This document shows positions 2,549-33,598 of a stretch of DNA of 37,257 nucleotides, in pieces; positions within the stretch are counted from its first letter, which is position 1; every line of letters starts with the position of its first letter. The stretch lies in the IMG/VR virus record IMGVR_UViG_2917849834_000002; one strand, 5' to 3'. The notes beneath the pieces were generated by a model. It had not been told where the DNA came from. It saw nothing but the letters and a program-made list of their open reading frames with translations, and searched no databases. A program made the position numbers and the translations under genes. Origin of the DNA: a virus. Taxonomy: Duplodnaviria; Heunggongvirae; Uroviricota; Caudoviricetes.

Positions 2549-2815
2549 AGCACTTGCTCCTTTTTTTGCAAAGGCGCTAAGCTCTTGCCCGCTTATTGAT
2601 TACGTTGTGAAACGCCCAGAGTTGAACATAAGGTTTAGTTGGGCCTTTTTACATCTGGCCTTCGTGTTTGCTGTCCAGCCATCAGTCGAAAGGTGTCCGC
2701 GTGAATTCTAGCCTGCTTTTTTTTCTTGCTTCAATACGTTGACTAATTTCAACACTCTGTTGTGCATATCCTGAACGCAGACATTATTCAGTCACGCATT
2801 TGATACATGCTTCCG

Positions 2816-2837
2816 CCGGCGTTCGCGCCGGTTTTTT
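2816..2837 (+). terminator. Intrinsic terminator with UUCG tetraloop; candidate 3' end of a Sok-like antisense RNA
   Basis: CCGGCG-TTCG-CGCCGG followed by TTTTTT on the plus strand, antisense to the expected hok mRNA leader. Confidence 0.45.
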
Positions 2838-3310
2838 GTCCTGTTGCTGCGTAGATCGTCATGTGCGATCGAGGCGCGGTATTGATCCTTTTTTCAGTTT
2901 AATTCTGGCTCTTGATTTTACGCAGGCCGCGCCGCGTCTGGCTTCTTTGTTTGATGGTTGTTTGATGCGATCCTTTAGTGATCGTTTTTCGTCTCGCGTA
3001 AAGCATGAAAACTCTTTTAATATCATGCTGTTTTATTGCTCCTGTCATTTGCGTGATCGTAAAAACCTCTCTGAAAACTGAAAAAAATTTCAAAGCGTGA
3101 AATTTCAGATCTTCGCTTTTCCCTCAGTTACTGCGCGGGCTGGCGGTCATTTTTGCACGGCAGAAAACTGAAAAAGTGTTTCGACACAAAACCCGCGGGT
3201 TGGAGGGGGTAGCGCGGTTTACGTCACCTCACGCTTTACGTCACACCGTTTACGCGGTATGTGCATACAGCGCCAGAATGGTATGCAGAACGCATTAATC
3301 AGGTGGTGGA

Positions 3311-6909: not shown

Positions 6910-8958
6910 CTATGCTGTACGTATAAACAAACCAATCATGACACCGAACGTATCAGCCGATCCCATCATGTCGCCAGACAATGCCCGGTACGTTCCCGGC
7001 AAACCTGCTCCTGAATCACGAAAATAAGCAGATACGTTGCCGTCGTATACGCCGGCCACGTTACTGGTGAAATGGCCCTTAAATTCAACCGCGCTAAGAC
7101 GCGAGCCAGGGTAATAATAACCCCGCATTATCCGGCGATTCTGGTCTGAAGAGTCACTTCCTCTGTATGCGGCCAGCACCAGACTGCCTGTGCCGTACCA
7201 GGCGTCTGTGGCTCCCGGAGCAATGCCTGACAGAAGATCGATAACGTTCTGAGTGGTAAATTTCAGTGATTCCCAGCCGATGAGATAGCCATTTCCACTT
7301 GTCCAGTAGCGGTTGTGATAAATATTGCCGTTAATGCCATAGAAAGTAATGACCTTTACTGTATGACGCGGGTTCGGCACTCCATACTCTGACTCAACCC
7401 AGCGAATACGAACCATTCCTTTGAACAGCACGTCCGGTATAATTTTATTGCTGCCGTCAACAAGATATTCTCCCGGTTCTGCCTTCCTTACCCACGCAAG
7501 AAAATCATTTTCTGAGTTAAACCTGATGACCTCGTCAGGGAGAAAGATATGACCAAAGCCGAACGCGCCAGGTATAGCCAGGCGGTCTGCCGTGCGGTCA
7601 TGAATGTCACCCTGCGGCTCCAGTGTGGCAGCTTTTCCAAGCTCAAGGATCGTGTGCATGTCTGCCAGTGTTTCCTGCATCAGCAGAGTGCGCGCCATTT
7701 CTGACAGTGTGGAAAGCGAAGCATTCCCTTCCGTATCAAAGCACAATAATTTGTCTGCCCGCGCTTTCAAATTGCTGATGGCGGTTAACACGTCACTGAG
7801 AGGTTGCTTGCCTGCCAGCGCGTTGGTGACTGTTGTTGCAAAGTTCGGGTCATTGCCCAGCGCCGCCGCCAGTTCGTTCAGCGTGTCCAGGGCTTCGGGA
7901 GATGAATCCACCAGTGCAGCGAGCAGTTTGCGGACAAACGCCGCATTTGCGATTTCTGTCCCCGTGGCATCATCAGGCGGTGTCGGGGTTTTCGGAGCGC
8001 CGGTAAAGACCGGACTGTACAGGGTGGCTCTGGCGTTGATTAACGTTAAGAAGTACGCCTCATTTGTCTTCAGGTTATCCCAGCCAGTCAGATAACCACC
8101 GCTGAGAGGCCAGTAACGGTTGTAATAAACATCTCCGTTAACGGTGTATAAAATAATGGCTTTTGCCATATGTTGCGGTTCTGGTGGATTGCGGTTCGCC
8201 TCCAGAAACCGGATATTAATTACACCACAGTAGCCACCGGGTAACACACCATTGGCCCCCTGTACAGAATACTCTCCGGGCGTTGCCTGCTTGACCCATG
8301 CTAGGAGGTCTTTTTCTGTATCAAACCGGATAAGCTCGCCTGGCAGAAACATGTGACCAAAACCAAATGCGCCCGGTATCGCCAGCCGGCCTTCCGTGCG
8401 GTCGTAAATATCACTCTGCGGCTCCATTGTGGCGGCATTTTTCAGTCCCAGATTATCACGGGATTCCTGTTGCGCCTCTTCACCTTCTGCCGCAATTTCT
8501 GACAGGTGGTTAGCCGTTTTCAGCATTGTTTTCAGTTCCGGATAAATATCCATCTGCCAGCTCTGTGGGGGAACCGTGATTTGTGCAGCCTGAGCCATAC
8601 CACTGTAAGTGATTGCAAAATTACGAAGAAGAGTTTCCCCCACATGTTTGTGGTGAACAGGAGTTTTTATTACACCGCATAGCGTGCCACTTGCCTGGTG
8701 AACAAGACAAATCCAGTCATAACTGAATTCGGCGTCTTCAGTGACTGCACCGCTACATACAATGCTGTTTGGGGTCAGTTGTCCGTAGGTGAGTTTGTTT
8801 ACGGTATAAGTAATTTTTTCCGGTGGAATAATATTATCTTCCGGGCTGGGGTCGCGATTCATTAGTGCAAATACGATGGCATCCGGCCGGGCAGGTAAAT
8901 TGCCGGCAATGCATTTTGCAATCCATTTTTCAAATGCTTTCGTTAATAATGCGCTCAT
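6910..8958 (-). CDS. Tail fibre protein 2 (mosaic, with internal duplication)
   Basis: 682 aa; N-terminus homologous to fibre 1; contains the P2 gpH-type motif ALDTLNELAAALGNDPNFATT; two diverged copies of a roughly 125-aa segment (aa ~177-300 and ~445-570). Confidence 0.8.
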   Translation of the reverse strand: MSALLTKAFEKWIAKCIAGNLPARPDAIVFALMNRDPSPEDNIIPPEKITYTVNKLTYGQLTPNSIVCSGAVTEDAEFSYDWICLVHQASGTLCGVIKTPVHHKHVGETLLRNFAITYSGMAQAAQITVPPQSWQMDIYPELKTMLKTANHLSEIAAEGEEAQQESRDNLGLKNAATMEPQSDIYDRTEGRLAIPGAFGFGHMFLPGELIRFDTEKDLLAWVKQATPGEYSVQGANGVLPGGYCGVINIRFLEANRNPPEPQHMAKAIILYTVNGDVYYNRYWPLSGGYLTGWDNLKTNEAYFLTLINARATLYSPVFTGAPKTPTPPDDATGTEIANAAFVRKLLAALVDSSPEALDTLNELAAALGNDPNFATTVTNALAGKQPLSDVLTAISNLKARADKLLCFDTEGNASLSTLSEMARTLLMQETLADMHTILELGKAATLEPQGDIHDRTADRLAIPGAFGFGHIFLPDEVIRFNSENDFLAWVRKAEPGEYLVDGSNKIIPDVLFKGMVRIRWVESEYGVPNPRHTVKVITFYGINGNIYHNRYWTSGNGYLIGWESLKFTTQNVIDLLSGIAPGATDAWYGTGSLVLAAYRGSDSSDQNRRIMRGYYYPGSRLSAVEFKGHFTSNVAGVYDGNVSAYFRDSGAGLPGTYRALSGDMMGSADTFGVMIGLFIRTA

Positions 8959-26734: not shown

Positions 26735-27694
26735 TTACTCCTTGTCCATTGCGTACAGCCCATTAACCAGAGCAAACTGTGGCACCCCGTCCGCGATGAA
26801 AGTCGCATTAACTCCGCAGGCTTCGCGGATAGCGGGTGCCACAATCTCCGCCCCGCCACCGACAACCATCACCCGCCCGTAACCCGAAAAAACCGCCAGC
26901 GCGCGGATCACGCGTTGTTTCAGTGTTTCTTCCTTTTCACGAATAACCGCCATCAGGCTGGCGTAATGCGCGTCATTGTGGATGTGCTGGCGCAGCCAGG
27001 CTTCATCATGGCGATGTTCGATAATGGTATTGGCGATGTGGTGACTGGTGCGCATACCGTTAGTGGCCATCACCGACAGTACGGCATCGGCCATCAGAGA
27101 AACGCCTACGTGTGGATCGCAAAACACCTGGCTGATACCTGCCAGTTGCCCCTGAACCTTTGCCACATCCAGCGTGGTTCCGCCCAAATCCACAATCAGC
27201 AGGGATTCAAACGGACTCATGTCAGCCAGTGCCTTAAAGCCAGCCGGAATGGATTCAGGCATAACCCGTACGTTACGGATAGTGAATGCTTCGCCGTTCT
27301 GGTACTCCACCGGGCGCATGACATTCGCTTTTTTGCGGTTGATGTTGGCCATGTCCGGCTGTGCGTTTGTATCGAAATACTCGCTCAGTGGCAGGGTGAC
27401 AACCACATCCACTTCCTGTGGTGTGATGCCTGATTTGACCAGCGCGTGATGAATGGCAATTACATTCACATCGCTGTACTGGTATTGCGTGTCGGTCGTC
27501 TGGACAAAGCGATCGCTGACCGGATCAAAACCATAGCGCACGCCATCAAGCATGTAGTTCGCGGGCTGCGTGCCACCGAACGGCGCAGACCATTCCGACT
27601 TGAAGCTGTTCGGGCTGATGGCGTTGCGGCGTTCGCCGTTCTCAGTCCATGCCAGCTTGATGTTGGTGGAGCCGTCGTCGATACAAATTTTCAT
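26735..27694 (-). CDS. parM: ParM/StbA-family actin-like segregation ATPase
   Basis: 319 aa; MKICIDDGSTNIKL, LIVDLGGTTLD and VMVVGGGAE align with R1 ParM motifs from memory; SD AAGGAAAAG upstream. Confidence 0.88.
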   Translation of the reverse strand: MKICIDDGSTNIKLAWTENGERRNAISPNSFKSEWSAPFGGTQPANYMLDGVRYGFDPVSDRFVQTTDTQYQYSDVNVIAIHHALVKSGITPQEVDVVVTLPLSEYFDTNAQPDMANINRKKANVMRPVEYQNGEAFTIRNVRVMPESIPAGFKALADMSPFESLLIVDLGGTTLDVAKVQGQLAGISQVFCDPHVGVSLMADAVLSVMATNGMRTSHHIANTIIEHRHDEAWLRQHIHNDAHYASLMAVIREKEETLKQRVIRALAVFSGYGRVMVVGGGAEIVAPAIREACGVNATFIADGVPQFALVNGLYAMDKE

Positions 27695-27729: not shown

Positions 27730-27837
27730 CAGGATTTTTAAATCCCGTTTTTGCCTGTTTTATGCGTGCTTCATATATCGCGGCGCGTTTTTTGCTCATT
27801 TACGGGATTTGTGAATCCCGTTTCTGTCTGTTTTTTG
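27730..27837. repeat. Two ~35-bp direct repeats, each with an internal palindrome; candidate parC-like centromere/operator
   Basis: ACAGGATTTTTAAATCCCGTTTTTGCCTGTTTT (27730..) and ACGGGATTTGTGAATCCCGTTTCTGTCTGTTTT (27802..), upstream of parM and overlapping a plausible promoter and the last codons of gpA. Confidence 0.5.
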
Positions 27838-30596
27838 TTCCCACGGGTCAGGCCACCCCGCAGCAGGTCTGCTTTGCGGTGGACGCGTTCAGTAGTTTCA
27901 CTGATTCTCTGTGCGTGCTCTGCGTCACGGATGGCGCGCAGCATGTCAGAAAGCACGGTAACGGGTGTTTTCATGATGTTCTGGTCCTGCTGAAGTGTGG
28001 ATGCCAGGCGTGCGGCGGCTTCGGGGTCTGATGCCCCCAGCTGTGCCAGATAGCTGGCGACCGGGTTATGGCGGATCTCCGTGCTGCTTACGCCGTGATT
28101 ACGGCTCAGGCGCTGCCAGAGCTGCGTGATTCGGCTGTCCGGGCGGGTATCCGGTTTGCGTACAACTTCAAATCCCTGCGGTGCAATGATGCTGCCGTCA
28201 ACGTACAGACTGCCGCCCCGTAACAGGTGCTGCATCTGCTGTTCACCAATATGCAGGCCGAGAGATTCAGCAGACTCCCGCCATTCTTTGGCGAGTAACT
28301 CGTGGTTATCAGGCAAAGGCTGTGGCTGTTTGCGGCTCTGTGTCCAGCTCTGCATTTCATCGCTGCTGTTTTTTGCCTGTTTGTCACGCAGCGAACGCAT
28401 CAGCGCCCGGCGTTCGTGCCGTTTCAGTGAGTGCATCCATTCATCCACATCAACGCCGTCAGGAAGCTGCGGCCACGGTGTTGACCGTTCTTCCGGCTGT
28501 TCTGTCCCGTTGTTGTCCGTTTCCTGTACAAGGGGACAGTTATTGCCACGAGTCCAAGGGGCGGCAGGGCCGCCCTGAAGGTCAAAACCATTTTCGTGGG
28601 CGCTGTCTTCCGCTTCCGGTTTACGTCTTACCAGCGTCCAGTTATCCGGATGTGTGCACACGCGGGAAGACTCCCCGATGAGCGGCGACCAGATCCCGTA
28701 AATCTGTACGCTCTGTTCGCCGTAATCGTTCAGCTCATCTGCGAGGTCGTAGGCGGTGCGAATCAGGTAGTCCTTGCGTGGAACAAGTACGCCACCCTGT
28801 TTTTCAATGTAGGTGGCAAAACACCCGGCATCGGCGGCAGCGAGTACCGCATCCATTGCATCATCCTTCAGCCGTTGCGGGCCTTCCGGGTTGCGTGCCA
28901 TCTGGCTGGCAAGGCGGCGGAGTTCACGCCATACCTGACGGGAGGGGATGCCAAAGAACTGGAACTGGCGGACCCGGTGAAGGCGCGCCCAGCCGATGGC
29001 GCGCTCCACGCTCTCGGCCATTGATTTACCTGTTTCGTGGTCAACGCGTGGCTTGCCCGTTTTCGGGTCGATACCATCCACGGCGCGGCTGTCCAGGTTC
29101 TTTCCGATGTAGGTGGCGATGTAGCTGGTTGGTGTGCCTTTTGAGCCGTCGACGTACTCCGCCTTAAAGCGCGGGGTGATATCGCTGCCCAACTCGTGGC
29201 GGTCTTCCTGAATGGCAATATCGCGGGCGTGGGACACAATAGTGTCGATTTCTTCCGGATGAGCAAAGACCATCATATGCCAGTGCACGGTGCCGTCATG
29301 GTGAGGCTCCACCGTGCGGATGCCATACCAGCGCAGGCCGTCGCGGCTCAGTTTTTTGCGGACCGCCGCAAAAAACGTGTTAACCAGGTAATCGCTGGAG
29401 TCGCGCATTGTGGCCCCGTTCCATTTGGGATTCGGATGACCGTTCTCTGTTGTGGCGTGGTATTTTGACGGGCAGGTGACAGTCAGAAACACCGCTTTGT
29501 CGCCACGGGCTTCGGCCAGAAGTTCCAGCCCCTTCATGGTGGCCATCATTTCTGCCTTACGGTGAGTCGGGTTACTTACTCCCGCGTAATACACTGTCTC
29601 GAGATCAATCGTGAAGCCGTCTTCGTTTTCCAGCATGAAACTTTTCAGGAAATCGCGTGTTTTCTCGCGCTGCGCGCGAAACTCGCTTAACGCGTCCTGG
29701 CTCAGATAGGGCGATGTTTTTCTGGAAACCAGACAGGCGGCGCGGAGTTGTTCTTCCCGCCACTCGCAACGTAGAAGCCATAGTTTGCGCTTCCACCAGT
29801 CCGCGCAGGTCAGGCGGAGGATTGCGCCCGGTAACAATTCCGTATCCGGAACGCTCTTGTTCAGGGCTTCGTAATGTGGCGGCATGATGTGCAGGCATAA
29901 TGCGATACGGGCCAGCATCCGGTAAGCCTTCAACATTACATCCATGGTCAGCTCGCCATCTCTGGCACCAAAGCCATCGCAGAGTGTTTCGAAGGTGCTG
30001 CTGAGCATCGCCGCTGTCATGACGGCCAGCGTCTGTATCTGGTGCTTGTTGAGCTGCGGCAGGTAAAGCAAATCGTCCAGGCGTTCGCGCCCGGCAAGGG
30101 AGCGATAACCCGGTGTCAGCCAGCGTCCGTCAGTGCGATCCAGACGTTCGAATATTTTGCGCAGGGTTCCGCGTGCATAGCCCTCTGCTGGTCGGCTCTT
30201 TTTGCCTTTCTGGCGATCAGATTCCTGCTTCTTACGCAAAAAAGAGAGGCGGCGGCTCAGTGGTTCACGCAGATAAACGGGAAGTGCCTTCAGTTCGGCA
30301 AAGGCGCTGGCCACCGGGTCTTGCTTTATTTCCTGGCGCTTATTGATGATGTTTTTTATCAGTTTTTCGCGTTGCCCGGCTTCCTCAAGGGATGCCATGA
30401 GTTTTTTGCCTGTATCGGATTGTGCGAAAAAGGCTTCTTCCTTCGCTTCCTGTTCTTCCTGTGCCCTTTTGTCCGCCTCAAGGTAGTAACGGATGGCGCG
30501 TTGCAGGTCGGTTTCAGTTTCCTGCCTGCGCTCCGTAAATCTGGCCGGATCAATGGCTGGCCGTGGTTCATTCCAGCTCCATGCAAACTCACTCAT
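27771..30596 (-). CDS. A: Rolling-circle replication initiator, gpA-like (HUH endonuclease)
   Basis: About 941 aa from ATG at 30596; HUH motif VHWHMMVF and active-site tyrosine pair YIATYIGKN; C-terminal region longer than P2 gpA. Confidence 0.85.
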   Translation of the reverse strand: MSEFAWSWNEPRPAIDPARFTERRQETETDLQRAIRYYLEADKRAQEEQEAKEEAFFAQSDTGKKLMASLEEAGQREKLIKNIINKRQEIKQDPVASAFAELKALPVYLREPLSRRLSFLRKKQESDRQKGKKSRPAEGYARGTLRKIFERLDRTDGRWLTPGYRSLAGRERLDDLLYLPQLNKHQIQTLAVMTAAMLSSTFETLCDGFGARDGELTMDVMLKAYRMLARIALCLHIMPPHYEALNKSVPDTELLPGAILRLTCADWWKRKLWLLRCEWREEQLRAACLVSRKTSPYLSQDALSEFRAQREKTRDFLKSFMLENEDGFTIDLETVYYAGVSNPTHRKAEMMATMKGLELLAEARGDKAVFLTVTCPSKYHATTENGHPNPKWNGATMRDSSDYLVNTFFAAVRKKLSRDGLRWYGIRTVEPHHDGTVHWHMMVFAHPEEIDTIVSHARDIAIQEDRHELGSDITPRFKAEYVDGSKGTPTSYIATYIGKNLDSRAVDGIDPKTGKPRVDHETGKSMAESVERAIGWARLHRVRQFQFFGIPSRQVWRELRRLASQMARNPEGPQRLKDDAMDAVLAAADAGCFATYIEKQGGVLVPRKDYLIRTAYDLADELNDYGEQSVQIYGIWSPLIGESSRVCTHPDNWTLVRRKPEAEDSAHENGFDLQGGPAAPWTRGNNCPLVQETDNNGTEQPEERSTPWPQLPDGVDVDEWMHSLKRHERRALMRSLRDKQAKNSSDEMQSWTQSRKQPQPLPDNHELLAKEWRESAESLGLHIGEQQMQHLLRGGSLYVDGSIIAPQGFEVVRKPDTRPDSRITQLWQRLSRNHGVSSTEIRHNPVASYLAQLGASDPEAAARLASTLQQDQNIMKTPVTVLSDMLRAIRDAEHAQRISETTERVHRKADLLRGGLTRGNKKQTETGFTNPVNEQKTRRDI

Positions 30597-30982
30597 GGCT
30601 GGTATCCCGTCACGCGCTGCCACTCCTGCGAGAAGATGGCGGAAAGGCGGTTAAATTCAGCGGTGTATTCACTCAGCGAGGCACACCCGCCAGCAGTGCG
30701 ATGCGCCAGCATTGCCACAAATACGGAGGCCGGGGAGTCGTAATACGCCAGCAGTGATTCGCCGTGTGGTGTCAGGCAGTGCAACGCCAGCCCGTGTGGT
30801 GTGAAATCCACGCGGTAGCAGTCGTCTACTGTGAAATAAAGGGTGTCCGCATTCTCCGGTTTTGTGGTGCGTGCTCTGTTGTCACGACCACGGATGTAGA
30901 GATCAAATAATCCCTGAAGAACGGGAGCCAGACGGGTGTCCTGTGTGCGCACCCATCTTGTGAAGTCATGAGCGTCAATCAT
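30593..30982 (-). CDS. Hypothetical early protein
   Basis: 129 aa; stop overlaps the gpA ATG (ATGA). Confidence 0.45.
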   Translation of the reverse strand: MIDAHDFTRWVRTQDTRLAPVLQGLFDLYIRGRDNRARTTKPENADTLYFTVDDCYRVDFTPHGLALHCLTPHGESLLAYYDSPASVFVAMLAHRTAGGCASLSEYTAEFNRLSAIFSQEWQRVTGYQP

Positions 30983-31054
30983 GCTGCAATTCTCTTTACT
31001 ACAGATGTGCGAAGGCCTCCCGCCGCAAGGTGCAGGAAAGGCCCGGAACAGGAA

Positions 31055-31285
31055 TTAATGGAGTTTGTTTTGCTGCTGGATGAGCTGTTGAAGCTCGTGC
31101 AGATCATCCGCCAGATAACTGAAAACAGAGGCGGAATAAATGTTTGATAGTGCGTGGCTGCGCTCATGCAGCATATTGATGTGCATGATTTGCGCGACGC
31201 GTGATGCGCGGGAAAGTCTGCGGTTGATTTCAGTCTGGATGTGACGACGCGCAGCGTATGCGCGCTGTTGTTTGCGGTTTGCCAT
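31055..31285 (-). CDS. Hypothetical small basic protein
   Basis: 76 aa, Arg/Gln-rich; SD-like AGAGG upstream of the ATG at 31285. Confidence 0.4.
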   Translation of the reverse strand: MANRKQQRAYAARRHIQTEINRRLSRASRVAQIMHINMLHERSHALSNIYSASVFSYLADDLHELQQLIQQQNKLH

Positions 31286-31459
31286 GATGTGGCCTCTACG
31301 TGTGTAAGTTTTGAAAACTCACCATCCAGAGCTGCGAAACTGTGGGTGGCGAGACGTACGAGGTTCGCAGTACCGGCAAACGCAGAACCCGGCCCGACCG
31401 AAGTCGGCCCCGTACGCCCCACCATAATTCGTGTGCGAAAAAGACGTGGCGATACAGTA

Positions 31460-31490
31460 CGCACAAAAAAACCGCTGGCGCGGTTGTGCG
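31460..31490 (-). terminator. Candidate intrinsic terminator inside the early region
   Basis: On the minus strand ACCGC-GCCA-GCGGT followed by UUUUUUU, nested in a longer imperfect dyad; about 120 nt downstream of the 183-aa gene stop. Confidence 0.4.
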
Positions 31491-31605
31491 CTACGTTTGT
31501 CAGCGGGCTGCGAAACCCGGCACCCGTTTTATGAGGTGCAGCGGAAATGTAACCTGACTGATTGCGGCATGGCAAGCGGTTTTTTTGTGTGTGCATGGTG
31601 GTTAC

Positions 31606-32157
31606 TCAGTTTGGTAATAGCTCGTACAGCACGGCATCCGCTGCGGTGCGGCGACCGTAAAGAGAACGTGCTGTGCGAGTGGTGACTTTTATTTGCAGTG
31701 TGTGATTAATGTGTTTTGCTATCATGGCGAACGTCATGTGCTGCTCATCATGTAGTTCAGTCACCAGTTTCACCAGGTGATCGCTGTATCTGGTCAGGTG
31801 GTGGAGTTCTCCGCATTTTCGCAGGCTGTAACCACGTTTTTTCAGGTGCACTTGTACTGTGCGACGGGTGCATCCCACCTCGGCGGCCAGTTCCTTCGCC
31901 GTTCTGGTGCGGCGGTTTTCGATGAGAAAGGCGATCTCCTTTGCACTCAGTGTCTTTCTCTTGCGACCAATCAATCCACGGCTATGCAAAAAACCAAGTC
32001 GGTGCATAACGGCATCATGGGTTCGTTGAATTCGTTCAGTTATCTGGCGCGTGTTGTACTCTGGATAAAGCGAGATAAGCATTTCATCCTCCTGCTGTGT
32101 CCATGGCTTTACATGTGCCGGAGCCACGCCAGGCGTACCCATTGGTTTGAGTTTCAT
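31606..32157 (-). CDS. Putative DNA-binding protein (Myb-like segment plus HTH-like segments)
   Basis: 183 aa; WTQQEDEMLISLY is Myb/SANT-like; basic helix-rich remainder. Confidence 0.45.
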   Translation of the reverse strand: MKLKPMGTPGVAPAHVKPWTQQEDEMLISLYPEYNTRQITERIQRTHDAVMHRLGFLHSRGLIGRKRKTLSAKEIAFLIENRRTRTAKELAAEVGCTRRTVQVHLKKRGYSLRKCGELHHLTRYSDHLVKLVTELHDEQHMTFAMIAKHINHTLQIKVTTRTARSLYGRRTAADAVLYELLPN

Positions 32158-32171
32158 TGTGATTTGCTCCC

Positions 32172-32471
32172 TTACTGGTTAAGGAAAAAATCGAAAACGT
32201 TGTCGATGCGTTGCAGCAGCTCCTGCTGCATTGCTTCCGGGTCTTCAGGTTCACCTGGTGCACCCAGCGTTGCGCAGAAATCAGCGATTTCATGGTGGAG
32301 CGTCAGGCGAATGGCTGGAGCCATGGTTCTGGCGTGCTCCAGCTCATCCAGCAGTGCCAGCACAGCAGACGGCGAGAGCATTGCGCGAAATGCCAGTAAT
32401 TTTTGATGTGTTGCCATTCGTTGCAGGTCAGTCGCCAGTTCGCGTAATTCCTGGTGGTTGATGGTGCTCAT
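32172..32471 (-). CDS. Hypothetical early protein
   Basis: 99 aa; SD AAGGAAG 8 nt upstream. Confidence 0.45.
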   Translation of the reverse strand: MSTINHQELRELATDLQRMATHQKLLAFRAMLSPSAVLALLDELEHARTMAPAIRLTLHHEIADFCATLGAPGEPEDPEAMQQELLQRIDNVFDFFLNQ

Positions 32472-32541
32472 GCTCTGGCTTCCTTCAGTAGCTGGTTAAA
32501 CATGTGGGTGAGTGGGTTGCCGCACCCGAACGGCATCGGGT

Positions 32542-32685
32542 TTACCTTGCAAGAGAACCGACCGCCTGTTTTGCGCTCTTCTCGGATGACCAAGCCGTCA
32601 CGCCAGAGTCGGCGTAACTCAGCGCGGCGGCGATTTCTCCGCCACTACACCCCGGATTGGCGGCGATATAGTCCAGAATGGTCAT
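32542..32685 (-). CDS. Small putative helix-turn-helix protein (47 aa)
   Basis: Not in the ORF track. MTILDYIAANPGCSGGEIAAALSYADSGVTAWSSEKSAKQAVGSLAR; start overlaps the upstream stop (ATGA). Confidence 0.3.
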   Translation of the reverse strand: MTILDYIAANPGCSGGEIAAALSYADSGVTAWSSEKSAKQAVGSLAR

Positions 32686-32885
32686 CTTCGTGACTCCTGT
32701 ATCTGTCGGATAAGGTTCACCTGCACCACATTCGTGGCGCAGAAGTATGTGTCGTCTATGAGATAAATGTGATGCGCGTCAGGTTGCGAACGGTGACGGT
32801 CGAGCGTTTTAATCAGCCGTTCGTCAACTTCGTATTCACGCCCTCTGGAGGTGAAACGAGTGACGGTAAATTTCTTAATTGCCAT
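32682..32885 (-). CDS. Hypothetical early protein
   Basis: 67 aa in the coupled early operon. Confidence 0.4.
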   Translation of the reverse strand: MAIKKFTVTRFTSRGREYEVDERLIKTLDRHRSQPDAHHIYLIDDTYFCATNVVQVNLIRQIQESRR

Positions 32886-33211
32886 TACGTTTCCTTAGCC
32901 TGGAAGGCCTGCACCATTTGATGCAGGCGGTACATGGTGCGAAAGCGTGGGCGAGTTCGATTGTTGGCGTCAGAACCATTAACGCGGTTAAGCCAGCCGT
33001 AGCCATACCAGCGGTTAGCTACCCACACCTCAAAGAAGTTCTCGCCGTAATAAAAAATCGCGTTATGCCGATTCACGGTTACGAGTGAACCTTCACCCAG
33101 TAGTTGTTCTAATGCCCCATCCCATGACGCACTGAACGGGCGATAGTAAAAGCCGGTTGCGGTCCTGATGATGTGGTCCAGCAGGGCCACGATGTATTTC
33201 AGTCTCTCCAT
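32885..33211 (-). CDS. Hypothetical early protein
   Basis: 108 aa, Trp/Tyr-rich. Confidence 0.45.
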   Translation of the reverse strand: MERLKYIVALLDHIIRTATGFYYRPFSASWDGALEQLLGEGSLVTVNRHNAIFYYGENFFEVWVANRWYGYGWLNRVNGSDANNRTRPRFRTMYRLHQMVQAFQAKET

Positions 33212-33223
33212 TGCGTTATTCCG

Positions 33224-33598
33224 TCAGTCAATGAAGCGGACTTCTTTTTTATTAGCTTCCAGAGCGGGGTTGGCGGAGATCTCCTTAATTAAGAGTTTCT
33301 CCTGGTCTTTAGACTCGGCTACGATGATGTAAATTTTGTCGTCAGCAACAGCGAGGCGAACTCGCTTGCCGATATTGGTGGCTGGCGAATTTTCTTTTGT
33401 TTGCTGTGCCCTGATAACTTCCAGCTCGGCAGCCTGTTTTTCGATGATTTCAGCGGCTTCAGTAGCAGTTTTTGCGATTATTAATGAGAGAGTTGCGGTG
33501 TCCATGTGGCCATTCGCCATGGCTTCTTTTGCTACTTCACCTTGCATATCTGCGATTTCATTCAGGTTGTGAATAATGCCTTCTTCTTTTGAGTACAT
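33224..33598 (-). CDS. Hypothetical early protein
   Basis: 124 aa, acidic and helical. Confidence 0.45.
   Translation of the reverse strand: MYSKEEGIIHNLNEIADMQGEVAKEAMANGHMDTATLSLIIAKTATEAAEIIEKQAAELEVIRAQQTKENSPATNIGKRVRLAVADDKIYIIVAESKDQEKLLIKEISANPALEANKKEVRFID

Follow-up and report, generated by a model that had tools for sequence, protein, structure and literature searches.

The stretch considered here comprises 320 bases (positions 31,286 to 31,605) of the IMG/VR virus record IMGVR_UViG_2917849834_000002, a Caudoviricetes sequence of 37,257 nucleotides, hereafter the window, which its genes and closest relatives identify as a P2-like prophage of the P88/Xuanwuvirus type. We consider it very likely that these 320 bases are an IsrK–C4 antisense-RNA immunity cassette in the early operon of this prophage: two small RNAs of known families, together with their target sites, placed ahead of a gene for a 76-amino-acid (76-aa) protein and of the replication genes. 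An earlier note on this DNA, made from the letters and a list of open reading frames (ORFs), had described a structured non-coding stretch between a 183-aa and a 76-aa gene, crossed by a 205-codon frame, and had suggested that it might be a conditional terminator, a small RNA, or a replication-related site. The ORF list bears out this layout, the noncoding gap being bounded on the minus strand by the stop codon of the 183-aa ORF (31606) and the ATG of the 76-aa ORF (31285).

The identity of the cassette follows from a scan with the Rfam models, which covered the whole window with the curated gathering scores as thresholds and returned exactly two matches above threshold, both within the 320-bp region, both on the minus strand, and both over the full length of the model (Table 1). 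The first match is to the isrK family, to which the seqA RNA of P4 belongs, and the second is to the C4 family, which takes in the c4 RNA of P1 and P7 as well as the CI RNA of P4. What had been suggested as a possible small RNA thus turns out to be two, one IsrK-like and one C4-like. The IsrK-like RNA consists of a first hairpin, a second hairpin with a segment termed b1 in its loop, a single-stranded segment a1, and an intrinsic terminator, and the same three hairpins recur in the consensus fold of 35 relatives. The C4-like RNA is made up of a 17-bp outer stem, a UUCG hairpin, a second hairpin that carries the segment a' in its loop, and the single-stranded segment b'. The UUCG-tetraloop hairpin singled out in the earlier note is present at the place reported and forms the first inner hairpin of C4.

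The relatives used for comparison are 80 IMG/VR loci whose 76-aa protein is 92-100% identical to that of the prophage, together with two GenBank relatives; besides the prophage's own, they give 35 distinct versions of a 330-nt region, and an alignment (A1) of 35 rows was built from 34 of these versions (L035 being left out) and the prophage itself. The C4-like RNA folds with -45.4 kcal/mol (z = -3.5, none of 200 shuffles being as stable), and pairing in its three internal helices is complete (100%) in 35 sequences; both partners have changed at one pair of the outer stem and at two pairs of the UUCG hairpin, hairpin 2 being invariant. The single-sequence minimum-energy fold of C4 deviates from the family fold in the inner part. 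The whole read-through RNA has z = -3.4, and IsrK folded alone has a weaker z = -1.6. The values for C4 and for the read-through RNA, along with the full-length covariance-model matches, agree with the description of the stretch as structured. In the Rfam alignment the outer stem of C4 is tRNA-acceptor-like and is followed by CCC/CCA; mature RNAs of the C4 family are cut from a longer transcript, with RNase P acting at the 5' end.

Each of the two recognition segments of the C4-like RNA is complementary to a pair of sites: a' to a1 and a2, and b' to b1 and b2, with the upstream sites a1 and b1 lying inside IsrK and the downstream sites a2 and b2 lying between C4 and the 76-aa gene, the ATG of which is found 7 nt past the GAGG of the Shine-Dalgarno sequence. 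The sites b1 and b2 correspond to a repeated decamer that had been noticed before. The decamer, GCTGCGAAAC on the plus strand, has two exact copies only in the window (31331..31340 and 31507..31516), against an expectation of 0.11 occurrences and with two or more copies in 0 of 100 shuffles; one copy is placed in the loop of IsrK hairpin 2 and the other 2 nt past the end of the C4 match. The repetition had therefore been seen correctly in the earlier note, and what escaped it was the complementarity of both copies to an RNA segment situated between them.

Table 1. Features of the IsrK–C4 cassette and of the adjoining early operon, in window coordinates
Feature	Coordinates	Strand	Evidence or remark
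183-aa HTH gene	31606..32157	minus	directly upstream of the cassette
205-codon ORF	30979..31596		ORF list; spans the noncoding stretch
Promoter-like site (putative PisrK)	31575..31546	minus	TTGCCA-18 nt-TACATT; -10 hexamer ends 7 nt before the first IsrK base
IsrK-like small RNA	31539..31465	minus	Rfam RF01394 isrK, 69.6 bits (gathering score 50), model positions 1-77 of 77
b1	31514..31508	minus	UUCGCAG; loop of IsrK hairpin 2; upstream target of b'; core of one decamer copy
a1	31499..31491	minus	CAAACGUAG; upstream target of a'; 5 nt ahead of the terminator stem
IsrK intrinsic terminator	31485..31465	minus	terminator scan; 6-bp stem AACCGC/GCGGTT, loop GCCA, 7 U
C4-like antisense RNA	31429..31342	minus	Rfam RF01695 C4, 80.4 bits (gathering score 45), model positions 1-87 of 87, E = 2e-14
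UUCG hairpin	31407..31394	minus	CCGAC-UUCG-GUCGG; first inner hairpin of C4
a'	31387..31377	minus	UUCUGCGUUUG; loop of C4 hairpin 2
b'	31370..31364	minus	CUGCGAA; single-stranded segment joining hairpin 2 to the 3' strand of the C4 outer stem
b2	31338..31332	minus	UUCGCAG; downstream target of b'; core of the other decamer copy
a2	31304..31294	minus	CACACGUAGAG(G); downstream target of a'; runs into the Shine-Dalgarno AGAGG (31297..31293)
76-aa gene	31055..31285	minus	Pfam PF25738 Derepression, 32.9 bits (cut-off 27)
129-aa gene (orf129)	30593..30982	minus	same transcription unit as the 76-aa gene; function unknown
Gene A (P2 gpA type)	27771..30596	minus	Pfam PF05840 Phage_GPA, E = 6e-128

These complementarities are maintained by co-variation among the relatives, a check that had been named in the earlier note and that gives a clear result. 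The 330-nt region is 84-97% identical among the versions, nearly all differences being confined to six short patches, and all four interactions are 94.8-100% paired with changes on both sides in each: a1–a' pairs in 100% of cells over 9 pairs (6 changed on both sides), b1–b' in 99.6% over 7 pairs (4), a'–a2 in 94.8% over 11 pairs (5), and b'–b2 in 100% over 7 pairs (4). The co-variation is three-way, with a' preserving its complementarity to a1 as well as a2, and b' likewise to b1 as well as b2. When the partners were slid by 1-3 columns as a control, 35-49% of cells paired, and the observed covariation score was reached in 0 of 500 shuffles. Expressed as alleles, there are at least 10 forms of a' and 5 of b', reassorted in at least 12 combinations; each a' allele is complementary to its own a1 at 9 of 9 positions and each b' allele to its own b2 at 7 of 7 and, with the exception of L070, to its own b1 at 7 of 7. 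Non-cognate combinations pair at 4-8 of 9 positions (a) and 3-6 of 7 (b), the exception being a single-base a' variant that pairs via G·U wobble. The 5' UUCU of a', which pairs with the purines of the Shine-Dalgarno sequence, is near-constant (two alleles are off by one base), and the other 7 nt are allele-specific and give the specificity.

Several individual sequences and folds deserve mention beside these target sites. The exception just named, L070 (a relative, 2688-3016), has a 2-nt deletion in b1 that lowers the b1–b' pairing, and its b2 and b' are still perfectly matched, which suggests that the upstream target site may be under weaker constraint than the downstream one. L035 (65-412, IMG/VR contig 2582580934_000004) has a 17-nt insertion in C4 hairpin 2 that creates two tandem a' loops, of alleles a10 and a4, and its a1 and a2 sites fit a4 only; the tandem loops may be a recombination product or may give C4 a choice of two specificities. 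In the consensus fold calculated for the unprocessed RNA, b2 falls in a hairpin loop: the 3' strand of the C4 outer stem, CUCGCCA, can pair with a downstream GGUGAG instead (31325..31353, minus strand), and this alternative hairpin holds b2 just as the IsrK hairpin loop holds b1. A pairing of the same 3' strand with a2 and the Shine-Dalgarno sequence, drawn from a single-sequence fold, was also considered as a mechanism and was dropped because a2 varies among alleles and the strand does not. Finally, a search for further C4 targets in the window, permitting G·U pairs, gave hundreds of 8-11-nt matches on both strands and was uninformative.

The same comparison bears on the proposition that the 205-codon ORF encodes an "Ash family" protein and that the hairpins are incidental to it. 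The frame is open over its 205 codons, its first 110 codons are open in about 30 of 35 relatives, residues 16-109 weakly match Pfam PF10554 Phage_ASH (E = 1.4e-4), and some records annotate an "ash family protein" here. The match, however, scores 22.7 bits, below the cut-off of 26, and the frame is broken or startless in about 5 of the 35 relatives (L070, L035, L060, L021, and L074) in which the RNA pairings persist; the substitutions, moreover, occur in blocks that are compensatory between distant RNA segments and not at synonymous positions, the 3' third of the ORF shares its DNA with the conserved 76-aa gene, which is read in a different frame, and RefSeq tags the corresponding feature as an incomplete pseudogene. 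P4 offers a historical case, in that the immunity factor was first assigned to a protein encoded by an ORF over the same RNAs (cI/ash) and was later proved to be the CI RNA. We therefore regard a protein-coding role of the 205-codon frame as extremely improbable, and its rejection in the earlier note as right.

The labels attached to this locus in the databases can be read in the same light. The sub-threshold Phage_ASH match covers exactly the IsrK–C4 segment (31270..31551, minus strand), and it looks as though the Ash protein family, at any rate as applied in annotating this locus, is the translation of an RNA gene. Features named "similar to ash family protein" or pseudo "ash family protein" lie over the same RNAs in GenBank/RefSeq relatives (L002 4002-4262; L091 1502-1762), and no noncoding RNA is annotated at the cassette locus in the records examined. 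In two other phages, coding sequences (CDS) are drawn across isrK and/or C4, namely an "antirepressor" in Stx2a_1447 (L093 1146-2297) and a "transcriptional repressor", gene 32, in N15 (L094 1579-1869), with the isrK/C4 matches beneath them at L093 1506-1694 and L094 1563-1650; both of these CDS are probably over-extended or spurious. A plus-strand ORF of 97 aa (31241..31534) was also considered and has no family match.

Upstream of the IsrK-like RNA lies a promoter-like site that is the sole sigma-70-like site on the minus strand within 30500..33500 and is nearly invariant across the 35 relatives. P4, Stx2a_1447, N15, a Salmonella phage, and a Citrobacter phage each have a -35/-10 pair equally far ahead of isrK, so that the putative promoter is positionally kept in 6 of the 6 element types examined, and we designate it putative PisrK, the presumed equivalent of PLE of P4. 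Members of the isrK family are characterised as primary transcripts from a promoter of their own that bind Hfq. At the other end of IsrK, the hairpin followed by seven U that the earlier note had reported on the minus strand is indeed present and is the IsrK terminator: the hairpin AACCGC-GCCA-GCGGTT occupies 31485..31470 and the T run 31471..31465, two of the seven T being inside the stem. The stem is invariant in 35 of 35 relatives and matches the hairpin with which the isrK model ends.

Since a terminator-like hairpin and its U run are found within an operon, in a cassette that starts right after the variable, mosaic part of the early operon, the stretch could also be read as no more than an intrinsic terminator or attenuator, passively dividing the accessory early genes from the replication genes without any trans-acting RNA; a related suggestion is that the stretch is a DNA replication or binding site. 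Neither explains the three-way co-variation among segments separated by as much as 220 nt, the matches to two RNA families over their full length, the conserved promoter-like site, or the strand-specific complementarity that makes use of G·U pairs, and the origin of P2 lies, by annotation, inside gene A. We judge this pair of alternatives very unlikely, and the replication-related site put forward in the earlier note finds no support. Its suggestion of a conditional terminator holds in so far as the U7 hairpin must be read through for C4, the 76-aa gene, and gene A to be transcribed. It does not hold with respect to where the specificity resides, which is in the antisense pairing and not in the hairpin; that pairing involves both an upstream and a downstream pair of targets, the downstream one covering the ribosome-binding site.

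The gene that follows the downstream targets is identifiable as a homologue of the epsilon (helper derepression) protein of P4. Its 76-aa product matches the Derepression family above the cut-off (Table 1) and shares 33% of its residues with P4 epsilon in an alignment of 51 aa (pairwise E = 1e-9), and the relatives annotate the corresponding product as "derepression protein". The known target of P4 epsilon is the repressor C of P2, and the repressor of the present prophage is 39% identical to P2 C. The 76-aa gene would be the gene directly under the control of C4. The gpA gene lies downstream of it in the same orientation, with no other promoter-like site detected between.

Taken with the described systems, these elements most likely constitute an antisense immunity switch of the P4/P1 type, the working of which we picture as follows. 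Transcription would start at about 31539 from the conserved promoter, and the U7 terminator would stop most transcripts to leave an IsrK-like RNA of about 75 nt that bears b1 and a1, with the 88-nt C4-like RNA being contained in the read-through transcripts and in early-operon transcripts arriving from upstream. By analogy with P1 and P4, C4 would be excised from these and accumulate, displaying its two recognition segments, a' in a hairpin loop and b' in a single-stranded junction. These would bind a2 and b2 just downstream and so block translation of the 76-aa epsilon-like gene, because a2 covers its Shine-Dalgarno sequence. In P4 a C4-type RNA governs premature termination ahead of the replication gene; here, likewise, the untranslated RNA would be terminated, with a polar effect on gene A, so that the epsilon-like anti-repressor, orf129, and gene A would stay silent in the lysogen, and equally in a phage of the same type that superinfects it. 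As a' and b' can also bind a1 and b1, IsrK would be either a second target, as is seqA in P4, where this second copy is required for immunity, or a decoy that switches the genes on by titrating C4, the role reported for the IsrK of Gifsy-1.

The last possibility can be carried further, to a Gifsy-1-type activating switch in place of a repressing immunity system, in which the read-through mRNA would be silent through pairing of a1/b1 with a'/b' in cis and free C4 would play a minor part. The minimum-energy fold of the read-through RNA does contain this cis pairing and resembles the translationally inactive "structure A" of isrK-orf45-anrP in Gifsy-1 (PMC4825925), a system in which spontaneous induction depends on IsrK, and the short IsrK supplied in trans stimulates translation of the anti-repressor operon behind it more than 100-fold (PMC4825925); P88, for its part, was obtained from a lysogen after mitomycin C (PMC5285337). 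What speaks for repression is that the downstream a2/b2 pairing, with a2 covering the ribosome-binding site, is kept as strictly as the upstream pairing, a constraint needed by a repressing antisense RNA and not by a pure IsrK activator, and that in P4 and P1 immunity is conferred by the homologous RNA. The two readings are, furthermore, compatible, since IsrK could be the antagonist of C4. A purely activating switch is in our estimation unlikely, and we retain the antisense immunity switch as the preferred interpretation.

Certain considerations nevertheless weigh against that interpretation. The sequence is compatible with either sign of IsrK, positive as a decoy or negative as a co-target, and the use of the promoter, the efficiency of the terminator, the processing of C4, and the effects on translation and termination are predictions. 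The anti-repressor role of the 76-aa protein would follow from an identity to P4 epsilon of 33% over 51 residues. C4 and the regulated gene are not separated by a short leader ORF as they are in P1, P4, and Gifsy-1, and the details of the coupling may therefore differ from those systems. The prophage's own a'–a2 duplex contains one mismatch and one G·U pair, and the pairing of b' extends over no more than 7 nt. Lastly, the 35 sequences are closely related, so that the cell counts given above overstate the number of independent events, and the number of alleles (10 a' and 5 b') is the safer measure.

The closest parallel to the cassette is found in P4, which has both Rfam families with order and spacing unchanged (isrK at 8692..8615 and C4 at 8507..8420), the immunity region being ordered PLE – seqA – cI/CI RNA – seqC – eta – epsilon – alpha. 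The a' segment of P4, CCUGUGAA, pairs with UUCACAGG sequences upstream and downstream, and its b' segment, UUCUCAC, pairs with GUGAGAA, following the same a/b logic as here; the P4 promoter is the same distance upstream, the downstream target overlaps a Shine-Dalgarno sequence in both, and an epsilon-family gene and then a replication gene follow in both. P4-like elements also show a comparable diversity, with their own reassorted series of at least 7 a' and 3 b' alleles. On this evidence the cassette can be identified as the immunity and derepression module of P4 type residing in a phage of helper type.

As far as comparison of the DNA goes, the departures from the described examples are the complete P2-like carrier, the lack of a leader of the icd, eta, or orf45 type, the presence of gpA in the same unit, and alleles that do not overlap those of the sampled P4-like loci. 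The carrier here, with gpA, C, Cox, integrase, and ParM, is a complete phage and not a satellite equipped with an alpha primase. In the prophage and in all P88-type relatives the ORF starting past a2 is the epsilon homologue itself, in contrast to P4, whose first ORF after C4 is a leader frame beginning MATTLTPSHPE..., and to the Stx phages, which like P4 have a MAT..TL..PE leader. A further difference from P4 is that the operon containing the cassette is driven by an early promoter located upstream. When alleles were extracted by regular expression from IMG/VR contigs (89 P88-type and 81 P4-type loci), 13 a'/b' combinations were obtained from the P88-type loci and none was common to the P88-type and P4-like sets, two or three of the P4-type matches looking spurious. 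The idea of shared specificities, and with them cross-immunity, between P88-type phages and P4-like satellites was accordingly given up, having no support in the sampled IMG/VR loci. In P2 itself the interval from C to A gives no match to isrK or C4 at E <= 0.1, and the cassette is therefore not general to P2-like phages.

The immI region of P1 and P7, ordered P51 – a1 b1 – c4 – a2 b2 – icd – ant and compared here from published descriptions, contains a c4 RNA of the same Rfam family, with two recognition segments that each have an upstream and a downstream site (PMC12197685). As in the present cassette, the downstream site covers the ribosome-binding site of the first ORF, and the regulated product is an anti-repressor (here the predicted role of the 76-aa protein). 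The heteroimmunity of P1 and P7 is set by differences in the recognition loops, which fits the 10 by 5 alleles found here. The present cassette differs from theirs in that the regulated gene encodes the epsilon-type 76-aa protein and not icd-ant, in that gene A lies downstream in the same unit, and in that a1 and b1 are packaged in a terminated small RNA of the IsrK type.

In Gifsy-1 (isrK – orf45 (STnc1160) – anrP), IsrK has its own promoter and a leaky terminator, as is predicted here; an anti-repressor gene follows there and a putative one here, and cis pairing between IsrK and the downstream RNA is common to both, in the present case as a predicted fold. The authors of the Gifsy-1 work likened a stable processed RNA downstream of IsrK to the CI RNA of P4 (PMC4825925). 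The leader orf45 is required for coupling in Gifsy-1, whereas here the epsilon homologue would be controlled directly, and the downstream effector AntQ of Gifsy-1 has no counterpart in the window. A Citrobacter Xuanwuvirus, an Stx2a phage, N15, and a Salmonella phage also carry isrK and C4 together, always ahead of either an anti-repressor-type gene or a replication gene, and in Stx2a_1447 the cassette is likewise inside the early operon, between cII and the replication gene O. The same a/b logic is readable in P4, Stx2a_1447, N15, the Salmonella phage, and the Citrobacter phage, in which promoter, b2, a2, Shine-Dalgarno sequence, and ATG keep their relative positions. Gifsy-1, the Stx phage, and N15 differ from the prophage in having a lambdoid or N15 backbone and an anti-repressor of the Ant/Rha type. 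The kind of system is thus known and curated in Rfam, and its P2-like setting appears to be undescribed: we found no description of the cassette in P2-like/Peduoviridae phages, within an incomplete coverage of the literature.

The wider surroundings of the cassette are those of a P2-like phage. The closest DNA relatives of the prophage are P88, Xuanwuvirus P884B11, and a Citrobacter Xuanwuvirus, and its genes include an integrase, Cox, the gpA replication initiator, and a ParM-like gene. The early operon runs on the minus strand in the order variable accessory genes, IsrK–C4 cassette, 76-aa gene, 129-aa gene, and gene A, the accessory genes being in this case Ead/Ea22-like together with the 183-aa HTH (helix-turn-helix) protein. 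The slot 5' of the cassette is mosaic, similarity to the relatives starting at about 31597: the 183-aa HTH gene is missing from other prophages with an identical C4 a'/b' sequence, and in P88 its slot is occupied by a serine-protease/lipoprotein gene. The 129-aa gene has no Pfam or NCBIfam match and its product no similarity to ORF151 of P4, and P88-type relatives annotate a hypothetical protein at its position. Gene A probably starts at ATG 30596, which overlaps the stop codon of orf129 (ATGA); its mechanical ORF begins at GTG 30623, and the start given in RefSeq relatives overlaps the preceding gene by 4 nt. This 4-nt overlap of start and stop implies that orf129 and gene A may be translationally coupled. 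Directly downstream of gene A, in this integrating P2-like phage as in P88, lies a plasmid-segregation gene of the ParM type (26735..27694, minus strand; StbA_N and ParM_N, E about 1e-82).

The 320-bp gap is herewith settled as two known regulatory RNAs with their target sites, and is neither a protein gene nor an origin. The cassette leaves the known principle of such systems unchanged, and its significance lies rather in where it is found and in how it varies. The module has gone unannotated in the records examined, or has been labelled a pseudo "ash family protein", and in other phages it is hidden inside over-extended "antirepressor" or "repressor" CDS. The natural series of alleles (at least 10 a' and 5 b', each matched at two sites) constitutes a natural covariation proof of the intermolecular pairings and offers a ready-made set of probably orthogonal antisense pairs. 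The common module of epsilon and RNA immunity links the P2-type helper lineage with the P4 satellite and bears on how the two sense and derepress each other. A tentative proposal, which we hold to be possible although rather doubtful, is that P88-type phages carry the RNA-controlled epsilon module of P4 as their own induction and immunity switch, that the anti-helper weapon of P4 is a captured or shared helper module, and that the a and b alleles reflect diversifying selection for orthogonal immunity types, distinct from those of co-resident P4-like satellites. A match to the module is present in 1461 of 5426 complete E. coli genomes (27%), and if it is true that the 76-aa protein inactivates the prophage's own repressor of the P2 C type, IsrK and C4 would form the switch of a very common group of E. 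coli prophages.

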